Source: Eledone cirrhosa (lineage: Eukaryota). From it: a DNA stretch of 64,000 nucleotides. Location: NCBI GenBank assembly GCA_964016885.1, contig OZ024758.1, forward strand, positions 18,042,001 through 18,106,000, written 5' to 3'. Under the pieces are notes generated by a model. It worked only from the letters and a program-made list of their open reading frames with translations, had not been told where the DNA came from and did not search any database. This document shows positions 2,567 to 64,000 of this stretch, one piece after another (the first letter of the stretch is position 1; each line of letters starts with the position of its first letter). Position numbers and translations under genes: made by a program.

Positions 2567-2860
2567 ATATAACACACACACACACTCATATATATATATA
2601 TATATATATCATAAAACATGTCTATAGAATCACAAGATAAAATATATACTATTTCCTCTCCCAATTAGCATAATTAACTATATAAAAATCCGAATAGACC
2701 AGGCTATACGAATGAGGTTTCTATAAAAGGAATCTCCGACAAATAACCAAAACTAGCGCTTCGCGTCGGCCGTAGCGGAATATTTATCGTGATTTGCATG
2801 GATCCGTAATGATATATATTCTCATTTTATTGAACACACACACACACACACCCACACACC

Positions 2861-3301
<441 letters not shown>

Positions 3302-4544
3302 TCAATGAAATGAGAATATATATCATTACGCATCCATGCAAATTTCTGTATATTCATTGATATGCTTTGCAAAATCTATTTAAGAAACAACGTTAGATGA
3401 TATTCTATACATTTGTTATATGACTGATGAAGATATCTATGTGATATAGTATACAGTGCAAACCTAGTTTCATGAATATATATACTTATCTATAAACATA
3501 CAACAATCAATGCTATTCTAACTTCTACGACGGAATCTATTGGAGACAAGATATCATTGACTAAACAGTCAAACGATTTTAGATTTCGTTATTTTTTTGC
3601 TACTTTTAACTGTTAACAAACTAATGGAACGTGATTCATCGTTTGAAAACAGTTTCAGGTTCGTGTATTATCAGAATTATGCTATGGTATCACTTGAAGT
3701 GTTTTGGCGCGTCAACACTTTTCTAAACTTAGACTTTTTAAAGTAATGTTTAACGCATTTAGATTGAAAAGATAATCGTTGAAGATCCTTTTTCTGATAC
3801 TACAGTTTGACTTTGTATTTCCTTTCATTGCTGTTCGTGTGTTGTGTTTTGTTTTGTTTTCAAGCTGAATTGTATTTTATTATTTTGTTTACATCGTTTT
3901 TAAATAAACAATGATATCGTCAAAGTTTCTATGGAAATACACACTTAATCGACTTAGTGCTCTCGCTGGCTACCTTTTGCATTCATACAAGTGTTTAAAG
4001 AAATCAATAGCTTAAAGGAGATTCAAATGATAAAATTCACGATATAATAGATTTTCGACGTGAATGAAACTTGCTTTTACTGCAGTCGCCTTGATCTATT
4101 TGTAGATGTTTGAAGACATAAACAATAACACTTTTATTGCAATTTTATGCCGTCTAGTTTACGTCATAAAATAAAATGTTATGGTGTTACTCATTGCATT
4201 ATTAGATGAATTAAACATATTGCCTGGAAAATAGCAAACAACGAAATTACCATTTTAGTGCATTTCATATATAAAAAAACTTGATTATCTATATTATTAA
4301 TATATTCAATATAATACACAGCTGTGCATAACTTTCCAATGATATGCATATATAATAATAATATGGATGGATATTATTGTTTGTGTTATATATATATATA
4401 TATTCATTGTCTCTGTCCAATGCATTGATGAGTGCAGCTCTCTGCAATTTAGTTATGTGCAGAGTTTTGTATCTTCGATTTTATGACCTACCGATATAAT
4501 AGCCTTGTGTATTTGTCCGTAACGCACTAAAGATGGCTGGGCAA

Positions 4545-6269: not shown

Positions 6270-6330
6270 CTAGTGATTTCATAAGAATGAAACAGTTCTA
6301 GTCCTGTAAAAGCCATTTATATATTAAATA
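6270..6330 (+). mobile_element. Remnant of fold-back family B with decayed hammerhead core
   Basis: ctagtgatttcataagaatgaaacagttctagtcctgta matches arm 37150-37190. Confidence 0.65.
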
Positions 6331-14874: not shown

Positions 14875-14913
14875 TTCTCTTCTCGGCCTTTTGGCTTAAA
14901 TCAAAGTGTAGTA
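14875..14913 (+). pseudogene. U2: U2 snRNA 5' fragment (~39 nt)
   Basis: ttctcttctcggccttttggcttaaatcaaagtgtagta vs U2 ATCGCTTCTCGGCCTTTTGGCTAAGATCAAGTGTAGTA; similarity stops after the branch-point recognition sequence. Confidence 0.8.
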
Positions 14914-16129
14914 CCTTCCCTATAATGATTTCGGATAAATACGCAAGGTCAACACATTTTGGGTGTAGGGTGAATTCGATATATGATTACTCTACATACG
15001 TTTCACACATCAACAAGAAGAGAGAACCACTTACTCTCGGTGTGAGAGCCGTCTACTGTGATATTTTCATTAATTAGTTTTCTAATTATCTTCATTTTGA
15101 ATAATGTTTTAGTGTGTTGTGTCATTGTCCTTGCATCGAAATAGTATGGCCTAATATTTCTTTTAAGTAAGATGATAGCCTTAAAACCTCTTAATCTACC
15201 GAATGTGATGCAGCTTCCACCGCGTGAATTAATTAATTCTAAAGTAGCTATGTTTATCACGTTCGTGTTATGGAGGCCAAAGTGTGCTTCTTTTGTTATT
15301 TTGGGGAGTTTGTTTTAAATTCAATAACAGATACAAAATCTTTTCTCTGTTCAGTTACAATACATTTGTCACACATTCCCCAAATTTAAATGAGATCCAT
15401 CAAACTGCTTTGCTGATGTTTGGACAGTTTAGTGTTTACGCATATCAATCCAAAGGGTTTAAAGAATTCCAGATGCATGATTTCAGGTGTTAACTGGTTT
15501 TTAACAGAAACGTGAGTTCATTTTATGCTGATACTTTCGGGATTTTTATGTCACTTTCATAAATTCTGGTAAAAGTTTCATTTTCTGAATTGAATCTGAA
15601 TCAATAAACAGCCTGAACATAATTTATTTTTTCTACATTTCAAACACATTTTTAAATTACAGAACATTTTCATTATGCTTGCTTATATAATAATGTAACA
15701 TATATATTCAAACTCAGGGTTATTCATATTCGCAGTCGCAACATTGACAAGGTTTTATAACCTTAACTTACTATTCTATTTGTTTATTAATGTTATGGCA
15801 TTCATTTGAAATTCAGATATCATTTCTCGTTGTTGATCCAATTCAATGAATGCAATAAGATTCGGTACAACTGAATGAAGATATTCACTTGGTTTCAGCT
15901 GATTTGTAGATGATTTTAAGTTATCTTAAAGACACATCTAAATCATATCGAATGTTGATCTTTGTTCTTTAATTTATATATTATCTAATTCACGAACAGG
16001 CCTGACCCTACATAATATCTGAGAATAACTTTATATAAACTAAATTTTTAATTCTCTTTTGGGAAGAACGGATGGTATTATAGCTTAGGTTGTAAGTATG
16101 ATAGTCTGTATGTTTATATGTATGTATGT

Positions 16130-16477: not shown

Positions 16478-16485
<8 letters not shown>

Positions 16486-16633
16486 ATACTTTGGGAGGGT
16501 CATGTTGCCAATAAGAAACACACGCACTGGTGCTTGTGTTTCTTATTGGCAACATGATCCTCCCAAAGTATAACAATATCGGTTTCAACACACGATTTCA
16601 GATAAAAAATCTTGCTAAACAAATTCAGAAACG

Positions 16634-16635
<2 letters not shown>
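16478..16635 (+). mobile_element. Fold-back mini-element family G, miniature of the coding PLE (hairpin 16478-16579 + tail 16580-16635)
   Basis: Near-perfect palindrome atattgttatactttgggagggtcatgttgccaataagaaacac...; tail ggtttcaacacacgatttcagataaaaaatc is homologous to the reverse complement of 20069-20125; (TA)n on both sides. Confidence 0.9.
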
Positions 16636-16671
<36 letters not shown>

Positions 16672-16686
16672 TAATACGTACGTATG

Positions 16687-16764
<78 letters not shown>

Positions 16765-16793
16765 TGCATGTATGTTAATACGTATGTATGTTA

Positions 16794-16847
<54 letters not shown>

Positions 16848-16969
16848 GCATTTATGTTAATAGGTATGTATGTACCACCAACCACTAGCTCTATGTAGGC
16901 CTTATTCCAGGCAAGCAAGCATCCATTACAAAACACATTTAGCATAACAAAGATGTCAGAAAGATATTA

Positions 16970-17180
16970 TTGGCAGTATTGGTAGAACGTCGGACAACAC
17001 GCTTTGCATCATAGAGTTGCGGCCCTTTAATTCCTGCGTTCAAATCCCGCTGAGGTTATCTTTGCCTTACATCGTTAAGGTGTCGATAGAATAAAGCACC
17101 AGCAATGCACTGGGGTCGATTTATTCGACTTTCCTCTCCCCGAAAATCCCTGACCTTGTGCCTGCAGAAGATATCATTAT
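16970..17180 (+). mobile_element. SINE family 1
   Basis: Head, B box, core and tail present. Confidence 0.85.
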
Positions 17181-17302
17181 ATATTTACCCATATCCCTAA
17201 ATATACAATCAGCCTTTGGTGCAAATGAAAATGCAATGGTGAATTTTCCAAAGAAACAAAATGTTTATTCACAATCTTACATCAGAATTCTATGCGACTT
17301 AT

Positions 17303-17560
17303 ACTGCTGCACGTCGGGCTGAGGAGACCAAACTCTCCATGTACCGGTCGCTCTCCAATAGGTTCGTGGTCATGCCCTTGGCAGTGGTGACATCTGGTGT
17401 TCTTGGCCCTAGGGCTACCTCCCTATTCACCACCATAGGCGCTGAGCTGACCAGACGCAGGTGTAAGCCTCGAGAGTTGGAATGGCTCTTCCAGCGCATA
17501 TCTCTTACCATTCTCAGGCGAAACGCCTTCTCCTTCATGTTCGCCGGGGCTGTGGGGAGG
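17303..17560 (+). mobile_element. CRE-clade non-LTR retrotransposon C-terminal (REL endonuclease) fragment
   Basis: AARRAEETKLSMYRSL..FVVMPLAVVTSGVLGP..IGAEL..PRELEWLFQRISLTILRRNA matches the CRE-type K..KY..F.PLAVET.G..G..FQRLS..IQRGNA pattern. Confidence 0.8.
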
Positions 17561-17814
17561 TCAGCACGTAGGACCCCATTTGGTCACCATACGGATTAAT
17601 TACACTGTTTGATTTGTGATGAATAATGCTTTAGCTTTCCAGAATATCTCCTCTATCTTTGTAATATGTTATTAAAGCCTCAGTAAATCATATCCGTTTG
17701 CACTGAGTGAACAAGCGTGATATCTGTAAGTACTATTTATAGGGAGGTAAAGATATACTTATATATATAATAAAATCATAAACTGTTGTCATATTTACAA
17801 AAATGATACGCGAA

Positions 17815-18089
17815 AGGGCCCACCCACAGCCCCGGCGGACAAAATGGAGAAGGCGTTTCCCCGAAGGACGGCAAGGGAGACGCGCTGGAAAGCCACTCCA
17901 ACTCGCAGGGCTCAAACACCTGCGGCTGGCCAGCTCAGCGCCTATGGTGGTGAGTAAGGTGGTACCCCTGGGCCCGAGGACACCTGAAGTCTCCAATGCC
18001 AGGGGTACGACCGCAAACCTGTCGGAGAGCGACTGGTATTTGAGGAGTTTGGCCTCCTCGGCCCGACGTGCAGCAGAACCTGGGTCAGT
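17815..18089 (-). mobile_element. Second CRE-clade fragment, opposite orientation
   Basis: PGSAARRAEEAKLLKYQSLSDRFAVVPLALETSGVLGPRG..IGAELASRR, with later frameshifts. Confidence 0.8.
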
Positions 18090-19037
18090 TATTAAATATG
18101 TTATGATGTGACGTCAAATATGTAATCTACAAATGATATAATGAAAACAAATGATCGTTACCTGTAGTGACGTCAGATATATTGCACAACCTTTTCAGTA
18201 AACAAGATGACAATTGCAACAGAAGGAAATATGATAACGTAATCAACAAGCAGAAATATATTGACAACTCAATTGTCTATTGAAAGGCAGCAAATTGAAA
18301 TATTACACATTTAGATAATAATCACGGAATCGTCTATTAGATGTTGTTTGTTTAAAGTAGATATCATTTCTTTAAAATAATCATACAGTAATAGTACTAA
18401 CCAATTATGCCGTGAAGGCTGCGCATATGCCAGTAATGATATTTTCTATAGCGTTAAATGCACAGAATATATCATTTGACATCGTTACGTTTGCACTAAG
18501 TGGACAACGTATCTTGAATAATTTAACAAGCACAACATTTTGACCTTGGCGCTTACATACAATAGTGGATTATAGATTCTCTTATAGTCAGGTTTGTATA
18601 CATTATTTTCAAAGCTTTCATTATGTGCACTTATCAGATGATTCATATACTCTCACATGCAACAGCCTGATCTCATCTGGCAATATTCACGGCTAATTAT
18701 AACTAGTTGTATTAAATATAAGTTGTCCGCACTCAGTTTTATAAGTAATTGCATTATATATGCATGCAGGCAATTGATTATATGACATATATCTGAGTGA
18801 TAAATGTATCTTGAATTTTTATGAAATAACAATATATAAAATCGATGCATACCTGCAATATTGTTCAATATTTCAAGCAGGGTTATAAATTAGATCAAAT
18901 GAATTCAAAAGAAATTTTAGGAGAAAAACGAAGTGATTTTCTTTCTATAGACTGAAGAGTGGTGGGCGATGCACATATATACTGGCACCGGTTTTATATG
19001 TACCTATTAGTGTGACGTCTCACGCATGCGCAACAGC

Positions 19038-19222
19038 TGGATTGGTTGTATCGGTAGAGGGTCGGACGCCATGCTATGACGCATAGATTTACGGCCCTTT
19101 CCAATCTGAGTTCAAATCCCGCCGACGTTAACTTTGCCTTTCATCCTTATGGGATCGATAAAATAAAGTACCAGTAATGCACTGGATAATGGCTGGCCTT
19201 GTGCCAAATGTAGAAAGAGTTA
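19038..19222 (+). mobile_element. SINE family 1
   Basis: Head, B box, core and tail present. Confidence 0.9.
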
Positions 19223-20326
19223 TTTCAAAGAAAGGGCAACTCAGGACTCGAACTCTCAACTTCACAAATACCTAGACTTACATTTTAAATTACATAATGT
19301 TTCCATGCCAAAATATATTCGCTTAACAATATTTAATATAATTACAGAATGTAAAGAAGGTGTATAATCTTTCATTAGCCTATTTTATTTGCAGCTGTCA
19401 TTTTACCTGTAGATTCCATTTGGAAATTAGATTATTCTTGGTATCTAGACAATAAGAAGGCTTTATGCCTTTCTATCATTTTGAGTTTAGATCTATTTGA
19501 AGTTTCCATCTAATACATCTGAAATATTAACATCCTAAGCTCATTTAAAATATGTATGTGACTGGTGTAAAACCGCTAGTATATTAATCTCTAAATATAT
19601 AACCTCGGTTCTTTATCTGTCATAATATAAGAAATCTACAAATTCGCATTTGTGCATTTTATATAAGGAATAATAAAAGTAATCCTGGCAGGTTCTCGTA
19701 TTGTCAACAATTCTGTTCTTTATTATTTATCACTTATCGCATAAAGCCTGAAACATTTCAAATAAAAAATATATTTCTTTGTAACATTGTTTCATTTGTA
19801 CTCGATTCTAATCAGGTTTCATAATCAAACATCAAGAAGAAATTAAATAAGGCGAAGCAGAAAATATTCGTCTTCTAATAGAGACGTTTTAGAATTTCGC
19901 TTTTGAAGTGAATCCATGAAATCGCATGTCATGATTCCTTTAAGGTCTGGACTTATTATTGGTGTGATGTTGCCAATAGCCTATGGCTAAATAATCAATG
20001 TGTATTGATATGGAACAAAACCATTTCATTATCAAGACATAAAACATCCATAAATATACATATATATATAACGGCGATGGATTTGATTTGCGAGGTTTTT
20101 GATATGAAATCGTGTGTGGAAACAAATATTGTTATACTTGGGGAGGGTATAATTGTTGTAATAATATTGCCAGAAGTAATAAGAGAACACACTCACTGTT
20201 TGGTGTGTTTTCGCTTCTGTATGTTTTATATCTCCACAGTTAATTCATTTGGTCCTTAATGTTTATCATTGACTGACCAACGGTGAGAAATACAGATATA
20301 AACACACATATATATATATTCTAACT

Positions 20327-20363
20327 CAGTTCTTTCATTGCACATCTGCACATCATCAGCGGT
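20327..20363 (-). ncRNA. Decayed hammerhead ribozyme in the PLE 3' pseudo-LTR
   Basis: Minus strand CUGAUGA-u-gugca(gaug)ugcaau-GAAAG(aa)CUG; same layout as 3134-3178 but the cleavage triplet and stem I are broken. Confidence 0.55.
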
Positions 20364-20639
20364 GCTATTGTGTTTCTCCTGTTGTATTGTATGTATACGT
20401 CATTTTTATTTTATCTGTTTATTTATTTTTGCCTTCTTATCTCTGCATGCGTTTGCGTGTGTGTATAGTGTTTGGTGTGTGTGTTCGCGTTTGGGTGACT
20501 GTGTTTTAATTATTGTATTCTATCTTAGTTTACTACTGTGTGTTTATATGTGTTTGTTGTTATTGTGCTTGTGTATATATTTATTTATTTATTTATATTT
20601 CTCTTAAGTCATTATTGTTTGTTTGTGTGTTGTTGTTAT

Positions 20640-22560
20640 TCCATTTATTTTTTTTCTGTTTAGCTCTATTTCGCCTGCCTCTCTGATTTACCTATCTGCT
20701 GGGTCATTTCTATGTTTCGATATTATTTTAATTTCTATGTTGTCTATATTACCGTCATGTTGTTGTCCTATTTCGTCCTTTTAATTCCCCCCAATGTTGG
20801 TCTATCCTTTCTCCTATGCTTCGAGCTGTCTCGCCTATGTATGTTGTTGTCATGTTTCTGCAAGTACCCTCTGTACATGTTATGCTATAGACTACATTTC
20901 TAGTTGTACAGTTTATCTGGGGGTTTACTTTTACATATAACACATTTCCTATTAGTACAGTGGGTGTCCTTAAAAGGGTACTTTTTGCTGATCAGGGATT
21001 TTATGGTAGTTCCTGGCTTTTCTACCACTTTAATTTTTAAGTTGGTCTTTCTCAGGGCCTTTCTACATTGGTTAGCTAATTTCCCTCCAGGCGTAGCGTC
21101 CACGTACATGACACTCTGGTATCTCTGGTTGTCGTACCATGAGGTGGCTTTCCATATCTTATGTTTAGTCCTATCTAAGATATTCCATGATTTGCTCCTG
21201 TATAATGGGCACATTCCTTTCATATCCAGTTCTACGAGGGTTTTATACTCCTCCGTGGCTCCTTTGTATACTCTGATTCTGTCTCTTTGGTTGTAGCCAG
21301 AGAACTGCATGCGGTTGATGAGGTGTTGGATGTGTCTTTCCATTTCTGGTGGGTCGCACATGCGGGACACGTTCTTCATCACTCGTACTAAGTCTGCGAT
21401 CAGAATATTAAACTTAGCACTACAGGACATTGCTGAATTTTTGAGTATCAGGTATTTGGAGGCCATGGGTTTAACGTAGTATGAGTGGAGAATTTGGGCC
21501 CTCTCGTCTATAGTGTTAATCCAGAGTTCCGTGTCTAATACAGGTAGTCTATTGTTAGGGTAGTCGATAGTTACAGTTATACTCTAGTGTATGGAGTTAG
21601 CTATCTGATGGATGCTTTCTATTTTGCTACATTCTAAATCATATTTGTTAGTACTCTCTTGTGGGGGTGTCCTTATTACTATATTAATATCGTCTACGTA
21701 ACGAGAGTACATGATGAGGTCTATGGAGCTCTTATCAAGGCGATATTTGAGTCTCCTTTCCCACCATACAATTACAAGGTTGGCAACGTCACCAGCTATG
21801 CTGACGCCAATGGCTGGTCCCTCACTTTGGGTGTAGATATTTTCGTTGAATTTGAATAAATGGCACTTTAGCGTAGTTTTAATACTAGGCCCTATTGCAT
21901 GCGCGACCATTTTTCCCATCTGATCATTGTCTGGCGGGTCCGTATGACTTTGCTCCACCCAATCCACCTTCCCATGGGAGTCCTTTTTGCCATTGAGGTT
22001 ACGGTGGGGGATCTACCTCTTATGTGTCTACTGGTGCAGAAACGGTTAAGGTCATGGCTATCTAGGTACTCGGTGTCATAGGTAAGTCTAAGTAGGCGAC
22101 CCAGTTCATCTGCGTCGACGTAGCAGAACTCCATCACACTCTCACTGATTATCTCTACACATTTTTCTACAGCAAAATCAATGTTAATGGATGGGTATAG
22201 TGATACCACGTCCATACTGCCTATTATGCAGTTAGATAGGTTTTTGTTTTTGTTGCAATCATTGATTCTGCTGAGGAGGTCCTCTGTACAGTCACACACA
22301 TCTGGGAACCTCTTAATTATGGGGCGTATAATCATTGATAGGAAGTAGGAGATCCTGTAGTTGCTAGCGATATTGGCTCCACATAAATCTTGTTGGTGGT
22401 CCTGTTGTGGGGTCGTCGAATGTCTTATGGTCTCTGCGGAGCCCATACAAAGATGGTATGTCATTGTTAGACGCCTGGAATTTTCTGGCAGTGCGTCTGC
22501 TTAGCTTTAGGATGTCGGTCCACATCATCATCTGAGCGTTGAGGACCTTTTCTCCCCTCA
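20640..22560 (-). pseudogene. PLE reverse transcriptase + GIY-YIG endonuclease (disrupted ORF)
   Basis: LYGLRRDHK, GSMDVVSLYPSI, QSEGPAIG, YSRYVDDI, LPVLD, YYVKPMAS; linker HCTNRKCVIC; CTTRNVVYSITC..C..YIGETARSIGERIDQH..IREA; premature TAG at 21584 and frameshifts. Confidence 0.93.
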
Positions 22561-22666
22561 TGTGGTGATATAAAAGATACATAAGCGAAAACCAACCCAA
22601 ACAGTGAGTGTGTTCAGTTATTATTTCTGGCAATATTATTACAACAATATGACCCTCCCGAAGTAT

Positions 22667-22705
<39 letters not shown>

Positions 22706-27820: not shown

Positions 27821-28006
27821 ATAGGAAATGAGTCAGGACCTCGACGGCTGAGCTCCGGCCGTTTCGACCAGGATATAAAGAACCTAGACATAATAGAAAC
27901 GGCCGGAGCTCAGCCGTCGGGGTCCTGACTCTTTTCCTATTACCCATTCTACTACCCTAAGTATTGAGTACTCTGGTGAATTATTGTCACCATGGTATCT
28001 TACCAT
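27821..28006 (+). mobile_element. Fold-back mini-element family A (hairpin 27821-27940 + tail 27941-28006)
   Basis: ataggaaa.gagtcaggacc.cgacggctgagctccggccgtttc mirrored; tail tacccattctactaccctaagtattgagtact matches reverse complement of 61208-61287. Confidence 0.88.
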
Positions 28007-29524: not shown

Positions 29525-29651
29525 TAACGAAGAAAGTGTGGTAAAGAACCAGGTGGACCATAACGCACCAGAGTTCTCGATACTATGAAATAGCTGTTCA
29601 GAAATAGCTGTCGAAATGGCCGGAGCTCAGCCGTCGGGGTCCTGACTCTTT

Positions 29652-31148: not shown

Positions 31149-31196
<48 letters not shown>

Positions 31197-31317
31197 AGGT
31201 GAGTTTTATTGTAGTACAATAAAGCAATGCAGATATCGGATAAGAAGCACTCTACAGTTTGTAGGTCTGGAGTATACATAATATAAGATCAAAAGATGGT
31301 TAAAGGAGTTCCATGTA

Positions 31318-31384
31318 TTTTATTATGCGCATTTCAAAAACAAACATCATCATGCAATAATATTTGTGTTTTCATCAGATAAAA
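31318..31384 (-). ncRNA. Minimal hammerhead ribozyme (left arm of family D)
   Basis: Mirror of 31504-31570. Confidence 0.75.
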
Positions 31385-31503
31385 TAGGAGAACATGATAT
31401 GAAGGCTAAAAAACACTTGTGGATAGTGCAGTTGATTTAAAACTGTTGATTTAAAACTGCACTATCCACAAGCGTTTTTTAGCCTTCATATCATGTTCTC
31501 CTG

Positions 31504-31570
31504 TTTTATCTGATGAAAACACAAATATTATTGCATGATGATGTTTGTTTTTGAAATGCGCATAATAAAA
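31504..31570 (+). ncRNA. Minimal hammerhead ribozyme (right arm of family D)
   Basis: uuuuau-CUGAUGA-[long AU/GU stem II]-GAAAU(gcgc)AUA-auaaaa; 6 bp stem I, palindromic AUGCGCAU stem III, NUH = AUA. Confidence 0.78.
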
Positions 31571-31703
31571 TACATGGAACTCCTTTAACCATCTTTTGAT
31601 CTTATATTATATATATATATATATATATATAAACGTATGATATATGTCTATATATATTTTGATATACACCACCTCGTAAACGCTGTAAATCTCCTAACCC
31701 AAT

Positions 31704-31734
<31 letters not shown>

Positions 31735-32159
31735 GATATATACATGTATTTTATACGCAAGTATAGACTTAGCACTTACCTGTCTGGTTAACATTTGAAA
31801 GAATCTCTTCTAGACACGTTTATAACTCTTATAGACATGAAATGTAGACTGTTAAAGTATACTATTATGTTTTCTAATTGATACACATTTGCGTGCATGA
31901 AAACTATTTGTATCTATCGCAGAATATTATATTCTTAACTTCCATTTGTCTGACTGTACCAATAAAACTGGTACCGAAGAATTTTAAGCGACATTTATAA
32001 ATATAAGCTAGCTTCGTAGGACAAATCTTCTAAAGACCTTACAGGGTATGTTATTTCAACTCTGATATATCTTCTTATTCATACATTATTGATGCTCAAT
32101 AACGCTGGATATATGAAAAGGAAATTGCAATATGACGATCCTATTTTTATATATCCTCT

Positions 32160-32640
32160 GGTTGAATAGGACACTAGAAATTTTTCTGGAATTATAAACA
32201 CTATAAAAACGTCAAAATGTAGAGAACATATGAAAGTTCTATGGATATAAATACAAATGTATATCTAGAAAATCAACTTAGTCGTAATGCAGTAAAATTC
32301 AGTTCAAAATTCATTTAAATCGGGACTATGTTTTCTTTTGGTTGAATTGTGCACTAGAAATATTGTTGGAATTATAAGCACTGCAAAAACGTTAAAATCT
32401 AGAGACCATATGGAAATTCTATATATCTAAATACAAACGTACATCTAGAAGACCAACTTAATCGTAATAGAGAGAAGATTCTGTTAAAACTTTAAATCTG
32501 GGCGATGTTTTAGTTGCATAGGGCACTAGAAAACCTTCGTGGAATTATAAAGACTGTAAATATGCTAAAGACTATAGAATGTATGGAATTCCTCTTGATC
32601 TGCAAATAGACATAGAGCTAGAAAACCAATTTAATCGTAA
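32160..32640. repeat. Diverged ~175-180 bp tandem repeat, three units
   Basis: cactagaaa..ggaattataa..act..aaa..ctagaa..caa.tta.tcgtaa recurs from ~32160, ~32340 and ~32512. Confidence 0.85.
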
Positions 32641-33229
32641 CACAGAATGGTAAATATTAGCGAAGTGGATATGAAGATAAACATAGATATATTCACCTAT
32701 TATACATAATAGTCTGCTCACATATAGACATTTAGAACTTCTCCAGTCTGATCCAAAGCGAGGGTCACATTGCTCTGATACAGAAATTAGTCTAAAGGAA
32801 CGGTAGGATGTTTTGTTGTTACCTCAGACGCAACAGATTGTATTGAACTAATTTTTCCAGTGCCTATTTATTGAAGAAAGGGATATAAATATAGACATAT
32901 ATCTGTCGGCCTTGAGCCTAAATCAAATACTAATACATACACATATAATCAAATGAAATGAATGCCTTACCCAAGTCACGTAAGTTGAATATATGTATCA
33001 AAAGTTTGTAAGTTATATCTATATCTGTCAAAGTTTCTCAAGCAAGTAGAATGCAAATCTGACCATTCCCATGTATCTAATTCACAAAATAATAATTCGA
33101 TATATATATTTATATATATTTATATATATTTATATATATATATATATATATGTGTGTGTATGTGTACATCTGTATCTATATATCTATCGAGATATATATC
33201 TATATCAATCAATATATATCTACGTAACT

Positions 33230-37020: not shown

Positions 37021-37213
37021 GTTATTCCGGGTTGAATCGGAGGTAACCACAGTAAGTAAGGTACTCAATACATAGCAGAGTATAAAAGTTTTAATATAGA
37101 TGAGATTCTACAGGACTAGAACTGTTTCATTCATTAGAAATCATCAGGATGATGATTTCTAATGAATGAAACAGTTCTAGTCCTGTAGAATCTCATCTAT
37201 ATTAAAACTTATA
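37020..37213 (-). mobile_element. Fold-back mini-element family B (tail 37020-37080 + near-perfect hairpin 37086-37210)
   Basis: aagttttaatatagatgagattctacaggactagaactgtttcattcattagaaatcatca mirrored; minus strand 37111-37147 reads CUGAUGA-uuucuaaugaau-GAAAC-aguucua-GUC-cug; (TA)n on both sides. Confidence 0.92.
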
Positions 37214-44295: not shown

Positions 44296-45512
44296 TCCTT
44301 GAATCTCAGTCATTGATGTTGGTTAACTGGAAAGTCCGTTGGATTGAATATCAAGCCACTACCTGCAGCCTCAGATATTCAGGACGTATCGGAGGGTTCT
44401 TGCCGTTCCAAGCAAGCATGCCTTTTGAAGCGTTCCAAAAAGCGTGAAGGGGCCGATTTTCTTTAACCATCCCTGGAAACCTTTGGAGATAGTCCCCAGT
44501 GCGCCTATGACAATCGGGATCACTTTGACTTCATGGCAGTTCCAAATCCTTTTCACCTCCCACTTTAGGTCCTGGTATCGGTTAATTTTCTCCCTCTCCT
44601 TCTCTTGCACTCTCGTGTCGAACGGGCAGGCCACATCCACAATCAGGCACGATCTTTTTTCTTTGTCCACAACCACCAGGTCAGGTCTATTGTGTTCCAG
44701 TTTTTTGTCCGTCTGTATCCTAAAATCCCACAGCACCTTCACCTGACTGTTCTCCATCACCGCCTCTGGCCTATGCTCATACCATTTCTCAGAATGTGGT
44801 AGATTGTTTACTTTGCACAGGTGCCAGTGGATCACCCTGCCCATCACATCGTGTCTCCAGCCCTTATAGTGGGTCTGGGCTAGGTGTTTACACTCGGACA
44901 CAATGTGAGCCACAGTCTCCTCTCTCTCTCCACAGATCCTGCACAGTGGGCTAGCCTCCTCCTTGTAGATATGGTGCTTCAACCACTTCGTTTTGAGGGC
45001 CTGCTCCTGCGCAGCCATTAGCATTCCTTCTGTAGCCTTTTTGAGGTCTCCTCTTCTCAACCAGTTCCATGTCTGTGGATCTCTAAATTCAGTTTTCTCA
45101 AAGAAGGTACTATGAAGGGATTTTCCCTTAGGGCTGCTCTTCCTCCTTGATGTTATTTCCTCCTTGGATATCCCCTGGCCTACTGTCCCCTCCTTCAGTA
45201 CAGCTCTGAGCATTGGCTCCTTACTATAGGTCACGTATTTGTATAGGTTGTTTTTCTCCATCTGAACACAGTCCTCTATGCTGATAAGACCTCTTCCACC
45301 CTCAGATCTCCTTAGGTAGAGTCTATCGACATCACTCCTCTTGTGGAACATGTTGTAGATAGTCAATAGCTTCCTAGTCTTCCTATCCATTTCTTTTTGT
45401 TCAGCAACATTCCATCTCAGAATTCCCGCACTGTACATAATAATAGACACAGCTCGGGAATTTACTGCGCTTATGGCATTTCTGCTGTTCAGATGTGACT
45501 TCAATACGCTCC
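44296..45512 (-). mobile_element. R4/Dong-clade non-LTR retrotransposon, 5'-truncated, in a (TAA)n array
   Basis: Open frame plus ~75 bp 3' UTR; (TAA)n on both sides; Dong elements are known (TAA)n targeters. Confidence 0.9.
44371..45512 (-). CDS. RT thumb + CCHC zinc knuckle + REL endonuclease (5'-truncated, frame intact)
   Basis: RLYLRRSEGGRGL, CRICGEREETVAHIVSEC, RHD, WDFRIQTD, RPDLVVVD, IVDVACP, EKINRY, PIVIGALG. Confidence 0.9.
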
Positions 45513-45576
<64 letters not shown>

Positions 45577-45578
45577 AG

Positions 45579-45794
45579 GGCGGTGGATTGGCAGTATCGG
45601 TAGAGGGTCGGACACCATGCTTTGCAGCATAGAGTTACGTCCCTTTATGGTTTGAGTTCAAATCCTACCGAGGTTAACTCTGATTTTCATTTTTACGAGG
45701 TCGATAAAATAAAGCACCAGTAACATACTCGGGTCGATTTAATCGACTTTCTCTCGTCCCAAATTACTGGCCTTGTGCATATACTAGAAATCAT
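45579..45794 (+). mobile_element. SINE family 1
   Basis: Full unit starting ggcggtggattggcagtatcgg. Confidence 0.9.
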
Positions 45795-51090: not shown

Positions 51091-51097
51091 GTGATAA

Positions 51098-51231
51098 TAA
51101 GAAATGTGGAGACTAAAATCCGAAGAGGGCTCGATAAGGATAATATCTATATCAAATACATAAAAACCATAGAGTCTCAGAAGATCCCGTCTAGCATCGA
51201 TTCTTTGCTTGACCTTTAATCTGTAATTTTC
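51098..51231 (-). mobile_element. Family C mini-element, internally deleted (tail + outer part of far arm) in (TA)n
   Basis: ccgaagagggctcgataaggataat is the reverse tail; gattctttgcttgacctttaatctgtaatttt matches the arm end 57807-57838. Confidence 0.75.
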
Positions 51232-53280: not shown

Positions 53281-53831
53281 TTAAGACCTGATGAGTGATA
53301 GTATGAACCGTCATAATGGTATCTTTACTAATCCTGGAGAAATTACAAAACTATTGTCTATTCTCCCACTCCTGTTTCCTTACCGTCGATTTCACAACAC
53401 TTTTTGATATAACATTAGATTTATCATTATATTATGATTCATGAAGTTTATATTTATTATGGTATTAATATTTAAATTAGCAGACGTATCTTGTGTCTGT
53501 TTTTAATATGAATTACAGACAACATTGTAAGAACGTCTACATTTTACAATAATAAATTGATGACACTTCATTAATTGAAGACTTGGTTGGATCTATAAGT
53601 AATGAGGATCTGGCAGTATTGGAGTGTGGTCTGGTCTGGGTATGCTATCCTAGATCATAAGCCAGCTGCTTGAGAAACATTTGTAACCAAGATTGTACAA
53701 TAAATCTCCTATGTAACATCTCCACTTGGTTCGTATTATATATATATATATATATAGATATATATAATATATATATATAAAAATATATGCCAATACAGAC
53801 CGAATATATATATATATATATATATATATTA

Positions 53832-56599
53832 ATTCAAATTATTAACACAAATAGAACTTCTTGTGATCAAGTATATTTTATTATACATATTTCAGAGGTA
53901 CTGAGCTAACTTCAACAGTACGTGCTCATCAGATAAAATATGATGATGCATGACATACCCTGACTTAGTAGATGGTTAGGATCCAGTCATGGTAGTGAGT
54001 AAGATATGACAAAACTCAATATTTATACACCTTAAGATTGAGACATGAAAAAACTTACATATAATACATATAATACAGAGGGTGCGTGTGAGAAAGCTTA
54101 ACAATACATAACAGCAATTTACATAACTGTTGCAGATTCAAATAACGATTTCTTTGACGAAGTTGTGTAATAGTAGAATTTACTTGAATTCTTCAATATC
54201 ATTAACTGCAACCTCTGTACCATGGAGACCCTATTAATAATTACTAATTATGAAAATTTAATTAACCAAAAAAGTGAATTATTCTCAAACTGCCTTCATA
54301 AAGCTTTGTCTACATTCCAAGCCTCGCAAAAAGTCAGGAAAAAACACTAAATAAACACGTTCTAATTTTTGACATCTCTTATCAACTGTGTACCTAAAAC
54401 GTTATAGCAGATTATAAAACTTTAATAATTTTTTTATTTTTTTTATTCATTTATGACATGATTAATGTTAGATTAAAGGGTCCTATATAGGTATATAAAC
54501 ATATTATTTGTTAACATGATCTCTTGATGAATGTGCATATCATTTGATTATTTAGATATATTTAATTTAGATTAGGATTCTTGTATATATATTTTTTAAA
54601 TATAAGGCTTATATGCTTAACAGTTATAATGAACCGTAAATCATTCATCCATTTATGTTTTTGTATATTTATTCATTTGGAGTATGTTTTACGTTTCAGG
54701 AGGTTTGATTTATATATTTTAAATTATATATATTTATGGTATATGCGTCACACGCGATACTAGTCGACAAACCTTTTTTTCCACTTAACTTGATGTAAAA
54801 CTTCAATTATAACATTACTAACAATGATTGTACTTATGATTTCTTATATGTATATCGATTACTAATATCTGGAATACTCTCTCTATATATATATTTGAAC
54901 AAATCTGTATATCTAGTATAATAACATGCTTCTAGTTACATTTATAAGTAATATACTTTAATGACTTTCTAGTGTTATAATCGTTAAATATTTTCTAAAT
55001 ATTTTCTAAATTTTCTAACTTATATAACGATTATGAGTTAATTTAATTTAATTAAATTCGGGTTACCTTCGGGTCAATGAAATCCTTAGGTTTTCTCTTT
55101 CTCATGTTTGCAGACTCATTAAAAACATTTCTCATGTTTGCAGACTCTTTAAACATTTTTAATTTTATTTTTAAACTATATAGCTTGGATATTGGGCACT
55201 TTTAAGATAGGCAAACAATTCACAGTTTTATTTTGAATCTGGTTCTTATCGTTATGATTCATGAAGTTTGACTTGTATATTTATAGTATATATGTATTAC
55301 CTGATCCTATTATAATAATTGATCTAAAACCTTAATTTTTAACAATATTATCAGTAACTTATTTATTGTATTATATTATGTCATATGTAACTGATAGGTA
55401 TCATCTTAATCTTGAGACAATATAATCTTTGTTTATATTTATACAAATGCATATATCTAATGTAATAATACACTTTTTTAAAAGTTTAATTATAAGGCCT
55501 TTAGTTGCTTTAAAGCATTTTAACTGTTAATCTTAATTTTTAAAATGATAACTGTAATTATTTTATAAATTATATAATGTGAATTATTTTCAATATAATA
55601 TAAATAATTAAATATAATATAATAAAATTGAATAAGAATTACCTTCGTCAGGATTAAAATATTATATCTTCTTTCTCATGTTTGCAAATATATTAAATAT
55701 GATTTCATAAAATATGATTTTATAAATTAAATATGATAGTATACTTTAATATTAATACATATATTTATAAACTTTTATAGCCTGAAATATTATACACTTT
55801 GATTGATTCATTACTTTGAATTAACTTAAATGATTTGAAAGTTAACGGTCAACCGGTTACGTTTGGATAGTATATATAACTAATTAACTAGGGATTGGAA
55901 ATTAACCTTCTTATAATTACAGCCAGTTATATTTAAGATTAAGATTCAGATTGATGAATACTTCTAGATAATTCAATAATTCAAATATTCAGTTTACTCT
56001 TTCGCAAAGCTATGCCCAAATGTATAGCTCTGTATAGATATATATATAATTCACCCCTCCCTATGTTTTACACTATACAAATTATTCCTCTTTACCTCTC
56101 TCCTTGATCAATTCTCTTTTGCTATCTATACTTCTACTAGCTATATTATCCCCTCATCTGGTTTCTCTCTGTCTTTCTTTTTTCTTTCCTTTTACTTCAA
56201 TAATTTAAATAATTTGAATCTCCAACAGTTATGTAAATTACTGTTATGTATTTTTAAGCTTTCACACACGCACCCTCCGTATTATATGTATTACATATAA
56301 GTTTTCTTTTTCATGTTTCTATCTTAAGGTGTATAAATATTGAGTTTTGTCATATCTTACTCACTACGATGACTGGATCTTAACCATCTACTAAGTCAGG
56401 GTGTGTCATGCATCATCTTATTTTATCTGATGAGGACGTACTGTTGAAGTTAGCTCAGTACCTCTGTATAATAAAATATAGTTGATCACAAGAAGTTCTA
56501 TTTTTGATAATATTTTGAAAAACCATTTGTGTTGAGTGCTTCCAATCTATTGTAAAACTCATTCTTTGATTTATTCATTGAAACTTGTTTAACCTTTAA

Positions 56600-56600: not shown

Positions 56601-56674
<74 letters not shown>

Positions 56675-57024
56675 TGCCAATACAGACCGAATATATATAT
56701 ATATTCGGTCGGTATTGGCCGGCAGGATCACGTTTAATTGAAGAGGTCCGCCTGATGAAGTCGTTTCAATTATATGTAATATTTAAGCCATATTTCAATT
56801 AAGTATTCACAATAATGCTTATCTGTTTAATAGCCACAGTTAAATCTTCTTAATTTTAGTTTTGTGTTTATATGGCTGTCAGCCAGCATGACCAAGAATA
56901 TGTCACACGTTATTTACTTTATGAATTACTATTGTAACTTGGTGTACACATGCATACATCTATGTGTACGTCCGTCTGTCTGTGATCAAGTTTTTCTCTC
57001 ACTCTCCACACACTCACATACCTG

Positions 57025-57736: not shown

Positions 57737-57920
57737 AAAAATAACAGATTAAAGTTTAAGCCAAGAATCGCTGCTTTCACGCTATCCCGTTAAGGGTGAA
57801 AACAGCGATTCTTTACTTAAACTTTAATCAGTTATTTTAATAAATATTGCTCTAGGGTTCTTATATATTTGATATATAATTATCCTTATCGAGCTCTCTT
57901 TGGGTTTTAGCCTTCACATT
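57737..57920 (+). mobile_element. Fold-back mini-element family C (hairpin 57737-57838 + tail)
   Basis: aaaataacagattaaagtttaag..agaatcgctg mirrored by cagcgattct..cttaaactttaatcagttatttt; tail contains tccttatcgagctctc. Confidence 0.85.
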
Positions 57921-57929
57921 AATAATTAT

Positions 57930-61077: not shown

Positions 61078-61407
<330 letters not shown>

Positions 61408-61421
61408 TATATATATATATA

Positions 61422-61481
61422 TAACGGAGGATAGCCGTCGAAACGGCTTGAGCTCAGCCGTCGAGGTCCTACTCGTTCCTA
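61422..61481. mobile_element. Family A minimal derivative (60 bp, both termini retained)
   Basis: taacggagga joined directly to tagccgtcgaaacggcttgagctcagccgtcgaggtcctactcgttccta. Confidence 0.8.
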
Positions 61482-61621
61482 TATATATATATATAGTAAT
61501 ATAAAAAATGTGAAGACTATATATATATATATATATATACATATATATATAAATATACATGTATATACATATATACATGTATATATACATGTACATATAT
61601 ATATATGTATATATACATATA

Positions 61622-62446
61622 TATTATATTATATTTTGAGAATAAACTCTCAGTCGTTTACAATAATTAAGCTCCAGGAAGGGGCTCTTCCGAGCAGTTA
61701 AATACATTTAAAGTATATGATAAACACGAAATGTGTTTACATTGCAACAGACAAAGTTAGCTATTAATGAAATAAACTAATAAAAGTGAATACAATTTGT
61801 CTGTCTCGATACAAGTCAATAAAGACAAGGTTATATTGGCAACTGCCATGATTCCTGGACATATTTAAATTTCAAAATTCAAACCTGTTCTGTAGACGAA
61901 TTTGAACCTCGAAACCCAAATAAGTTTCGCAATGGTGGAATGTGAATTGAAAAATAAAGAGAATCGAAATGGAATAGAAATAAAAGAGTGAAATATCCAA
62001 ATCATCTGTGCATGTCAACAGGAATCCAGTAAGATTAGTCTATCACACATCAAAAATTTTGCAGGACTGACTACACGTGGGTAGGCAGGCCAAAACAAGC
62101 TATCCCACATTCACGGTGCTAGAATTAACAGCCGCTTATGCAGGATTAAGGATCAGCTCTTACAATAAAGGAGCTATACATTATATTATATTTTGAGAAT
62201 AAACTCTCAGTCGTTTACAATAATTAAGCTCCAGGAAGGGGCTCTTCCGAGCAGTTAATACATTTAAAGTATATGATAAACAGGAAATGTGTTTACATTG
62301 CAACAGACAAAGTTAGCTATTAATGAAATAAACTAATAAAAGTGAATACAATTTGTCTGTCTCGATACAAGTCAATAAAGACAAGGTTATATTGGCATCT
62401 GTTGCAATGTAAACACATTTCGTGTTTATCATATACTTTAAATGTA
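61622..62446 (-). mobile_element. Family H: ~220 bp direct repeat (61622-61841 / 62181-62397) plus inverted partial arm (62398-62446 mirrors 62259-62307)
   Basis: Near-identical direct copies; tail 62190-62258 has gagccccttc on the minus strand; TA-rich flanks. Confidence 0.8.
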
Positions 62447-62494
62447 TATACATATATATGTATATATATGTATATATATGTATATGTATATATA

Positions 62495-63084: not shown

Positions 63085-63128
63085 AGAGAAATATATAGAG
63101 AGAGGAAAAAACACAGAGGGAGATAGAT

Positions 63129-63160
<32 letters not shown>

Positions 63161-63822
63161 AAAAATATAGATAGAGAGAAATAAAATAGGTAGTCGGGCA
63201 CCAGTTGAATGACGTATCAATGATATATTTATTTATTTATTTATTTAGTTCTAGTATTAAGGTAGAGAGAGATATATGTGGTTAGGAGAGAAAACAGCCG
63301 TTACATAGAGAGAAAAGAAAATATCCAGACATAAACGAGGCAGATTTAAAACATTATGTTTCATCAATGTAAAAATTAGGTATTATAATGTAAATATCAG
63401 TATTCATGAATGAGACACGTATCAATAATGTGTGAAAAATAATGATCATATGTCTAGTTTAAAATTCAGAGTTGAGATAAAACTGAGATAAAAAACTGAG
63501 ATAAAAAACTGAGATAAAAAAACTGAGATAAAAAACTTCAAAAAAAATTGAAATACATAAGTATATATGCACTTTCATGAAAAAAGAAAAAGAAAAAGAA
63601 AAAGAAAAAGAAAAAGAAATAGAAAAAGAAAAAGAAAAAGAAAAAGAAAAAGAAAAAGAAAATAGAAGGTTATCCCATTATTTATAATACCTAATTTTTA
63701 CATTGATGAAACATAATGTTTTAAATCTGCCTCGTTTATGTCTGGATATTTTCTTTTCTCTCTATGTAACGGCTGTTTTCTCTCCTAACCACATATATCT
63801 CTCTCTACCTTAATACTAGAAC

Positions 63823-63853
<31 letters not shown>

Positions 63854-63922
63854 ATATATCATTGATACGTCATTCAACTGGTGCCCAACTACCTATTTTA
63901 TTTCTCTCTATCTATATTTTTT

Positions 63923-63956
<34 letters not shown>

Positions 63957-64000
63957 ATCTATCTCCCTCTGTGTTTTTTCCTCTCTCTATATATTTCTCT
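63085..64000. repeat. Near-perfect inverted repeat >=300 bp (63085-63388 / 63682-window end) with a spacer of (AAAAACTGAGAT)n and (AAAAAG)n
   Basis: Arms differ mainly in (TTTA)n copy number and one or two substitutions. Confidence 0.92.

Follow-up and report, generated by a model that had tools for sequence, protein, structure and literature searches.

A miniature hairpin of probable Penelope-like element origin among the fold-back insertions of a 64 kb stretch of Eledone cirrhosa DNA

Insertions of Penelope-like elements (PLEs) have inverted ends and a tail at one side only, a layout that reviews ascribe to endonuclease resolution or to self-priming and whose origin is still debated. Its components are on record: an inverted 5′-truncated copy, a tail at one end and targeting of TA repeats have all been described for PLEs (PMC8557442, PMC8969392), and the pseudo-long terminal repeat (pseudo-LTR, or pLTR) of Pen2a_Av from the rotifer Adineta vaga holds the first 12 amino acids of the open reading frame (ORF), or 22 with the tail (PMC3846280). 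The one PLE system studied in vitro reveals two start sites, though not the way in which an insertion is finished (PMC11167929). The subject of this work is a 64,000-nucleotide stretch of Eledone cirrhosa (assembly GCA_964016885.1, contig OZ024758.1, positions 18,042,001 to 18,106,000), called the window, in which positions are counted from the first letter. It carries a 158-base hairpin at 16478–16635, which is very probably an insertion of PLE origin, and a coding PLE at 20069–22674. Miniature insertions of this kind show both ends and the joint between them within about 150 bases.

Endonuclease-containing (EN+) PLEs of the Neptune or Nematis type (PMC8557442) resemble the elements of the window in having a C-terminal GIY-YIG domain after the reverse transcriptase (RT), a CX2-5CxxC linker, 5′ truncation, a 5′-truncated copy placed inverted at the 5′ end, a one-end tail, microsatellite targets and a hammerhead motif in the pseudo-LTR. 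Unlike in those elements, tails in the window are 56–91 nt long (30–40 bp there) and many insertions are shortened on both arms to 100–420 bp. Pen2a_Av and its relatives also have inverted pLTRs, junction palindromes and solo pLTRs, but the Pen2a_Av structures are few and flank near-full ORFs, and their junctions were read as self-priming, which three copies in the window do not fit (PMC3846280). Poseidon PAc of Anolis, studied in vitro, shares an AT-rich target, cutting and extension of both strands, and two start sites within the ORF start that bound the tail; it belongs to another clade and shows no strand difference in start site, in contrast to the one tail per fold-back seen here (PMC11167929). 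In Schistosoma, minimal hammerheads occur as opposite-strand pairs 100–700 bp apart that were ascribed to truncated PLEs (PMC4209133), the layout of an insertion at 31195–31615 of the window; the passages on these pairs give no description of ends, tails or targets. Finally, non-LTR retrozymes, regarded as PLE derivatives, are short non-coding pLTR-derived units with type I hammerheads, but they form head-to-tail tandems, unlike the head-to-head tailed hairpins described here; of the families in the window, H alone contains a tandem unit, in which the search for a hammerhead was negative (10.64898/2026.07.22.740005; PMC7229834).

Since the inverted copy, the one-end tail, TA targeting and opposite-strand hammerhead pairs have already been described for PLEs, the anatomy itself is not new, and the hairpin belongs to this known insertion layout. 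No description was found of dense doubly truncated miniatures, of tails up to 91 nt or of copies cut inside the tail, which is a weak negative, as the main reviews and Repbase lie outside the search. The available part of a paper on Octopus vulgaris repeats lists Penelope families and miniature inverted-repeat transposable elements (MITEs) and describes no such structure (PMC13282606).

The hairpin consists of (TA)17, two arms of 50 and 52 nt, the second inverted, 56 nt of tail and (TA)16. The tailless arm (16478–16527, sense on the minus strand) starts on (TA)n at what will be called the inner site. The tailed arm (16528–16579, plus strand) contains an ATG at 16554, and the tail (16580–16635, plus strand) reads together with the arm end as a 27-residue peptide, after which (TA)n follows. 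The two arms show two differences in 50 positions and a fold z-score of −18.6. Arm end plus tail has no stable fold (z 0.7 and −0.6), and the hammerhead scan found no hammerhead inside the 158 bp. The arm is identical at 50 of 50 positions to a solo copy at 2968–3232, which runs 215 nt past the hairpin apex. All apex letters are found in this parent copy, where the apex corresponds to a natural GCA/TGC 3-bp stem minus one base. Hairpin and solo constitute family A (the letters A–J are labels coined in this analysis), whose arms in the window have two lengths only, 50/52 nt and 265 nt. The family is multi-copy: in two contig runs from one sample, 38 and 36 contigs have its tail as a loose end at 20105.

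The coding copy, 2606 nt long and assigned to family B, has its parts in the same order: (TA)4, a tail (20069–20125, minus strand; 57–58 nt), a 3′ arm that forms the end of the pseudo-LTR (20126–20238, minus strand), remnants of a minus-strand ORF, an inverted tailless arm of 114 nt (22561–22674, plus strand, with an ATG at 22649) and (TA)14. Over 110 nt the two arms agree at 88% of positions, and the tail again continues the reading frame of the arm end into a 27-residue peptide. The hairpin tail matches the coding-copy tail at 38 of 46 positions with a score of 60, which none of 2000 shuffles attains (maximum 34), and its best non-self match among 6396 search windows of the 64 kb is that same tail (54; next unrelated 35). 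With up to three mismatches allowed, an end motif occurs five times in the window against 0.04 expected, and all five matches are inside the hairpin, the solo and the coding copy. Viral contigs contain no match to the motif; one match in a metagenome contig (L001), inside a bacterial-looking ORF, was rejected as chance. The initial annotation, which had placed these elements correctly, had proposed that the hairpin carries the arm terminus and the tail of the coding PLE in the same arrangement and that the similarity of the tails would exceed that of shuffled controls; it was right on both counts.

The stretch common to hairpin, coding copy and solo begins at the ATG (16554, 22649 and 2993, respectively) and reads as 27 codons. 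Over codons 2–27, the hairpin and the coding copy show 17 differences, 12 of them at third positions (p = 0.002); eight of the changed codons are synonymous and seven are not. These codons are likely the start of the element's own ORF, because the change is of coding type from the ATG onward and because Penelope pseudo-LTRs and tails are known to carry the ORF start. The pLTR of Pen2a_Av likewise holds the first ORF codons, which the tail extends from 12 to 22 residues there and from 9 to 27 here (PMC3846280). The same peptide is present in nine short database proteins, seven of which have Met at the same column. In two of six close full-length relatives, P0064 (z 6.0) and P0044 (z 3.4), its best score is at the N-terminus; among 18 distant relatives there is no such case. 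Weighing against an ORF start, the N-terminus is not ranked first in the other four close relatives, and the peptide is significant in none of 122 long relatives (best independent E-value 0.11). A word search of longer proteins with the 27-codon peptide gave seven candidates, none of which scored. The profile search returned 19 matches, nine short real ones and 10 long multi-stretch ones; the latter were set aside, and the one that was inspected, P0011, is an unrelated repeat protein.

From the ATG to the arm end the two elements are identical at 25 of 26 positions, and upstream of the ATG at 14 of 50 without gaps, although short blocks there are still alike; the hairpin arm can be aligned with the arms of the coding copy over only about 30–39 nt. 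Judged by these comparisons, hairpin and coding copy are sister families A and B, not the same family. The initial annotation had taken the hairpin for the extreme truncation of the same insertion product, and what stands of this is a PLE insertion of the same layout that comes from a sister family.

By the features given in PMC8557442, the coding copy is classed as an EN+ PLE of the Neptune or Nematis type, two clades that could not be told apart. Its broken, 5′-truncated ORF (20640–22560, minus strand) has RT motifs (MDVVSLYPSI, YSRYVDDI), a thumb, a CX4CxxC linker and, at its C-terminus, a GIY-YIG domain. The reading frame shifts near 22388, 21937, 20920 and 20757, and a stop interrupts it near 21585. 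That it is 5′-truncated follows from where the homology to relatives begins, at 22567, which is the joint with the inverted arm. An RT of PLE type is indicated by the RT motifs in the translation and by a match of 61–71% to an Octopus vulgaris RT protein, the nearest named one. The Pfam matches lie below their cut-offs (RVT_1, E 0.011; GIY-YIG, E 2.6e-4 and 21.7 bits against 22.6). In the CCHH signature of the GIY-YIG domain, C, C and H align with relatives and the second H does so only in the next frame beyond a break. The linker reads CTNRKCVIC, which fits CX2-5CxxC and is present in 85 of 95 relatives having the YxGE motif. A separate motif reads DKS in 64 of the 67 relatives that have it, a reading that the clade descriptions consulted do not assign to a clade. 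Pseudo-LTR, inverted truncated copy and one-sided tail are all present as well. The other PLE types were rejected: Naiad/Chlamys because the endonuclease is C-terminal rather than N-terminal, the Hydra clade because its CxCX5C linker, DKT motif and lack of CCHH do not agree with the copy, and the Penelope/Poseidon type by the features of PMC8557442. Searches with 10 query proteins gave no PLE protein match elsewhere in the window.

Family B is very abundant in reads. Its summed word depth (run X1), which is not a copy number, is 7.6 in the flank, 6e3 to 4e5 over the body, with lower values over the 5′ part, and 5e5 to 7e5 at the ends. Most reads that match the coding copy are 90–95% like it. 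Many reads end at 20081, not 20069, and one joint has TA letters there, so that either a second outer end or divergence of the coding copy may be involved.

The solo of family A (2968–3232, minus strand) is tailless, has TA on both sides and continues into a predicted minimal type I hammerhead at 3134–3178 on the same strand. The core, CTGAAGA...GAAA...TA, is at 3173–3167, stem I has 5 bp, and stem II has 6 bp with an extra 5′ base, as in the PLE hammerheads of PMC4209133. In the initial annotation this copy was a relative with an intact hammerhead that shares the first ~48 bp of the hairpin arm. The arm start indeed agrees throughout, and the hammerhead motif is there, with the qualifications that its loop III (GGAC) is not palindromic and that Rfam reports no hammerhead at 3050–3232. 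The same is true of 29560–29650 and, among the 150 of 340 matches listed, of the whole window. The hammerhead scan found four sites in the window against 0.04 in shuffled sequence; they belong to families A, D (both arms) and F. In the coding copy, a decayed hammerhead-like motif (CTGATGA...GAAA; 20320–20365, minus strand) lies in the 3′ pseudo-LTR. Its core letters are at 20353–20359, its stems are decayed and do not pass the stem test, and it is outside the four scan matches, while the motif of the sister family passes. An apparent hammerhead near 22530 was rejected as RT coding sequence. Seven of 14 matches of a looser scan (2.4 in shuffled sequence) are hammerhead-like 3′ halves of family C with no intact core; its copies at 2472, 27821, 29526, 31016, 61209 and 61423 have a GAAAC-hairpin-GTC element with a palindromic loop.

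The hairpin is thus very probably a PLE insertion and not an independent MITE, because the shared part behaves as coding sequence, the apex is parent sequence and the solo relative continues into a PLE-type hammerhead; the initial annotation's expectation on this point holds. Unlike a MITE, which has inverted repeats at both termini and no retroelement sequence, the hairpin has 56 nt of tail outside one arm and changes as coding sequence does. Neither is it a non-LTR retrozyme, in which tandem units with a hammerhead each run head to tail, since its arms are head to head. The distinction matters for annotation, as such hairpins resemble TA-flanked MITEs.

The hairpin is one of 11 fold-backs of one-tail layout, which together with lopsided relatives make the window a compact test set. 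A seed scan gave 21 rows, ten of which have an arm–apex–arm structure (13158, 16478, 20069, 27821, 31273, 37087, 53830, 57360, 61290 and 62258); an eleventh, at 57738, joined the set from a separate repeat comparison. The rows left out are 582–1962 and 2792–3343 (TA inside or on both sides), 17304–18076 (no TA), 63085–64000 (window edge), 28182, 36232 and 61553 (simple repeats), 31639–32903 (four seeds) and three rows that pair counted copies. In all 11 fold-backs one arm only is on (TA)n, within 4 nt, the background rate of TA within 5 nt of a given side being 3.8%. A bounded tail of about 56–91 nt is present in nine. Fold-backs with two tails or none were not found among the 11, an outcome with a chance near 0.0005 if arms chose their site at even odds. 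In families C, E and G, the tailed parts begin at one fixed point and the tailless arms at another, and the truncation points vary in these families and in B. Copies with the tailless part only (2968) and with the tailed part only (59484) both occur.

As far as their sequences tell, the other fold-back families are like the coding copy in anatomy and not in sequence. The initial annotation expected the hairpin to identify the enzyme class behind the other fold-backs. By anatomy it does so for the ten others, two of whose families also have hammerheads; homology of their sequences to the coding copy was not borne out, and an extension of the class to 582/1962, 2792/3343, 56679–56725, 17304–18076 and 63085–64000 does not hold. 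Inverted duplications with TA on the inner or both sides (the first three of these) are a separate class and have no tail.

Twin priming, a term from LINE-1 work, probably made the hairpin, a conclusion of moderate strength. Both cut ends of a (TA)n run would prime reverse transcription on the element's RNA, with the outer site used from one target end and the inner site, which lies 56 bases further in, from the other; head-to-head joining of the two short complementary DNAs (cDNAs) would follow. Their 3′ ends may anneal at short self-complementary spots, which would favour near-symmetric apices. The cDNA lengths would be 108 and 50 nt in the hairpin, about 2490 and 114 nt in the coding copy, which would be the same kind of product, and 0 and 265 nt in the solo. 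Family A may have a coding master of its own or borrow the enzyme of its sister. A Penelope protein studied in vitro acts on AT-rich DNA by cutting and extending its two strands, and it uses two internal RNA start sites whose spacing equals the tail (PMC11167929).

The evidence that favours two cDNAs begun at two fixed sites comes from three lopsided copies. The family C copy at 29526–29651 has a tailed part that ends at tail position 58 and is joined to a tailless arm, with no inverted repeat; in the family G copy at 51094–51230 the tailed part ends at position 80 of 91 and is joined in the same way; and in the family C copy at 61423–61479 a tailless arm of 48 nt adjoins about 8 nt that resemble the end of the tail. 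In all three, the sequence of the tailless arm is absent from the tailed part, which ends inside the tail. Unless something was lost later, these arms were therefore not copied from the first cDNA. Joints between opposite strands also turn up in reads from further copies of family B. Their positions vary; examples are 20218/21471 and 20139/20428, the tailed arm being the shorter one in the latter. No short symmetric hairpin of the coding family is among the 15 of 382 read joints listed.

Several points weigh against twin priming. The same start sites are used on both strands in vitro (PMC11167929), and with no strand difference the strict one-tail rule would need an additional ordering step. 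Later loss of one arm by deletion could account for the lopsided copies. Each cited read joint comprises one or two read starts, and several of the listed joints lie at simple repeats and may be mapping artefacts. The outer boundary of the tail is unclear in two of the 11 fold-backs (13158 and 57360), a coding copy of family A was not found, and the window holds a single family A hairpin. Inner gaps of 3–30 nt give near-symmetric apices in A, C1, C2, D and E1, and the family A apex sits on a natural parental stem.

The last two points are what self-priming predicts. In this explanation, which involves the same enzyme class and is rather unlikely but the most serious competitor, a single cDNA (or antisense template) started from the tail folds at a small stem and is copied on itself until it is blocked or cut by the tail-bound enzyme. 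The parental GCA...TGC stem minus one base in family A and two family C apices on the stem beside the hammerhead-like 3′ half agree with it, and self-priming has been proposed for palindromes at inverted PLE junctions (PMC3846280). The apex does not decide between the routes, because the same letters would result if two cDNA ends annealed at such a stem; in families A and D it is not at the hammerhead cut site. What self-priming cannot yield without an extra deletion is a tailless arm that is missing from the tailed part, as at 29526, 51094, 61423 and the joint 20139/20428, or the tailless solo at 2968. Across a genome, the joint distribution of both arm lengths would tell twin priming and self-priming apart by purely computational means.

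It is very improbable that the 158-bp hairpin is a non-autonomous unit of fixed form that a PLE enzyme copies as a whole in trans. In favour of this, the window has one family A hairpin, the tails of family A exist in multiple copies, other sequence can be mobilised in trans by PLE ends (PMC3846280), and family H resembles a short tandem non-coding unit; against this, the solo extends 215 nt beyond the apex, family C copies vary in apex and length, and the joints of the coding family vary. Slightly less probable still is a remnant of a longer inverted-end insertion that lost its middle. Palindromes are deletion-prone, and long inverted-end copies exist (the coding copy and family F), but the hairpin arms differ at two of 50 positions only, the apex is clean parent sequence on both arms, and both arms would have to be trimmed to within 2 nt of each other. 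The least credible reading, already largely refuted, is an independent MITE with an inverted end that flanks the PLE by chance: inverted arms, TA flanks and small size do look MITE-like, but the one-sided tail is in frame with the arm end and shows the third-position bias, solo arms occur, a hammerhead motif lies upstream, and RT homology ends at the arm junction (22561–22567).

A wider view built on twin priming is conceivable but stays tentative, the balance being somewhat against it. PLE integration in general would be ordered twin priming, with the outer start site invariably used by one target end and the inner start site by its counterpart. Most products here would be tiny hairpin-plus-tail scars of at least eight families, about one per 6 kb. 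Together they would make up a large class of repeats, unrecognised so far and liable to be misfiled by MITE finders, and a genome-scale record that could settle the origin of PLE inverted ends and tails.

The remaining fold-back families differ in size. Family D (31195–31615) has a 78-nt tail and arms of about 160 nt with a minimal hammerhead in each, one of them at 31378. The family C fold-back at 61209–61405 has a tail of about 80 nt and relatives at 27821, 29526, 31016, 61423 and 2472; family E (37022–37209) has a 61-nt tail and relatives at 6274 and 59484, and a short tail motif is common to C and E. The family G fold-back (57738–57929) has a 91-nt tail. Family H (61618–62447) is a 558-nt unit in partial tandem with a 53-nt inverted tailless arm and is possibly a short non-autonomous PLE. 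Family F (53830–56599) has 311-nt arms with a hammerhead, an 80-nt tail and an AT-rich middle of about 2 kb that has no match to the 10 PLE query proteins and may be captured host sequence or a non-coding element. A duplicated target spacer lies on both sides of family F: 15–16 nt between TA runs at 53783–53810 and 56672–56725, with an inverted copy of the spacer beyond the next TA run (56672–56725).

Among the tailless inverted duplications, the pairs 582–673/1871–1962 and 2792–2870/3280–3343 consist of host sequence that contains runs of (CA)n and (TA)n. The tailless solo at 2968 is directly bordered by the second pair, as though copying of the first flank had healed a failed second end. The pair 17304–17556/17823–18076 is 81% alike, GC-rich and coding-like; it lacks a TA flank and matches nothing in Pfam. 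An abundant interspersed repeat of 130–340 nt, 75–90% alike and resembling a short interspersed nuclear element, occurs at 731–945 and about 18 further places. A stop-free frame of 428 amino acids at 44371–45657 (minus strand) with a weak zf-RVT match (E 0.001) is likely the 3′ part of a long interspersed nuclear element. A weak match to U2 small nuclear RNA lies at 14875–15032 (plus strand; 36 bits, below the Rfam cut-off of 46). Two dispersed inverted pairs are present, 26748–26918/29356–29503 (72%) and 45936–46150/57076–57290 (98%), and at 63085–64000 a 93% inverted repeat of ~300 nt surrounds (GAAAAA)n and a short tandem repeat and extends to the edge of the window.

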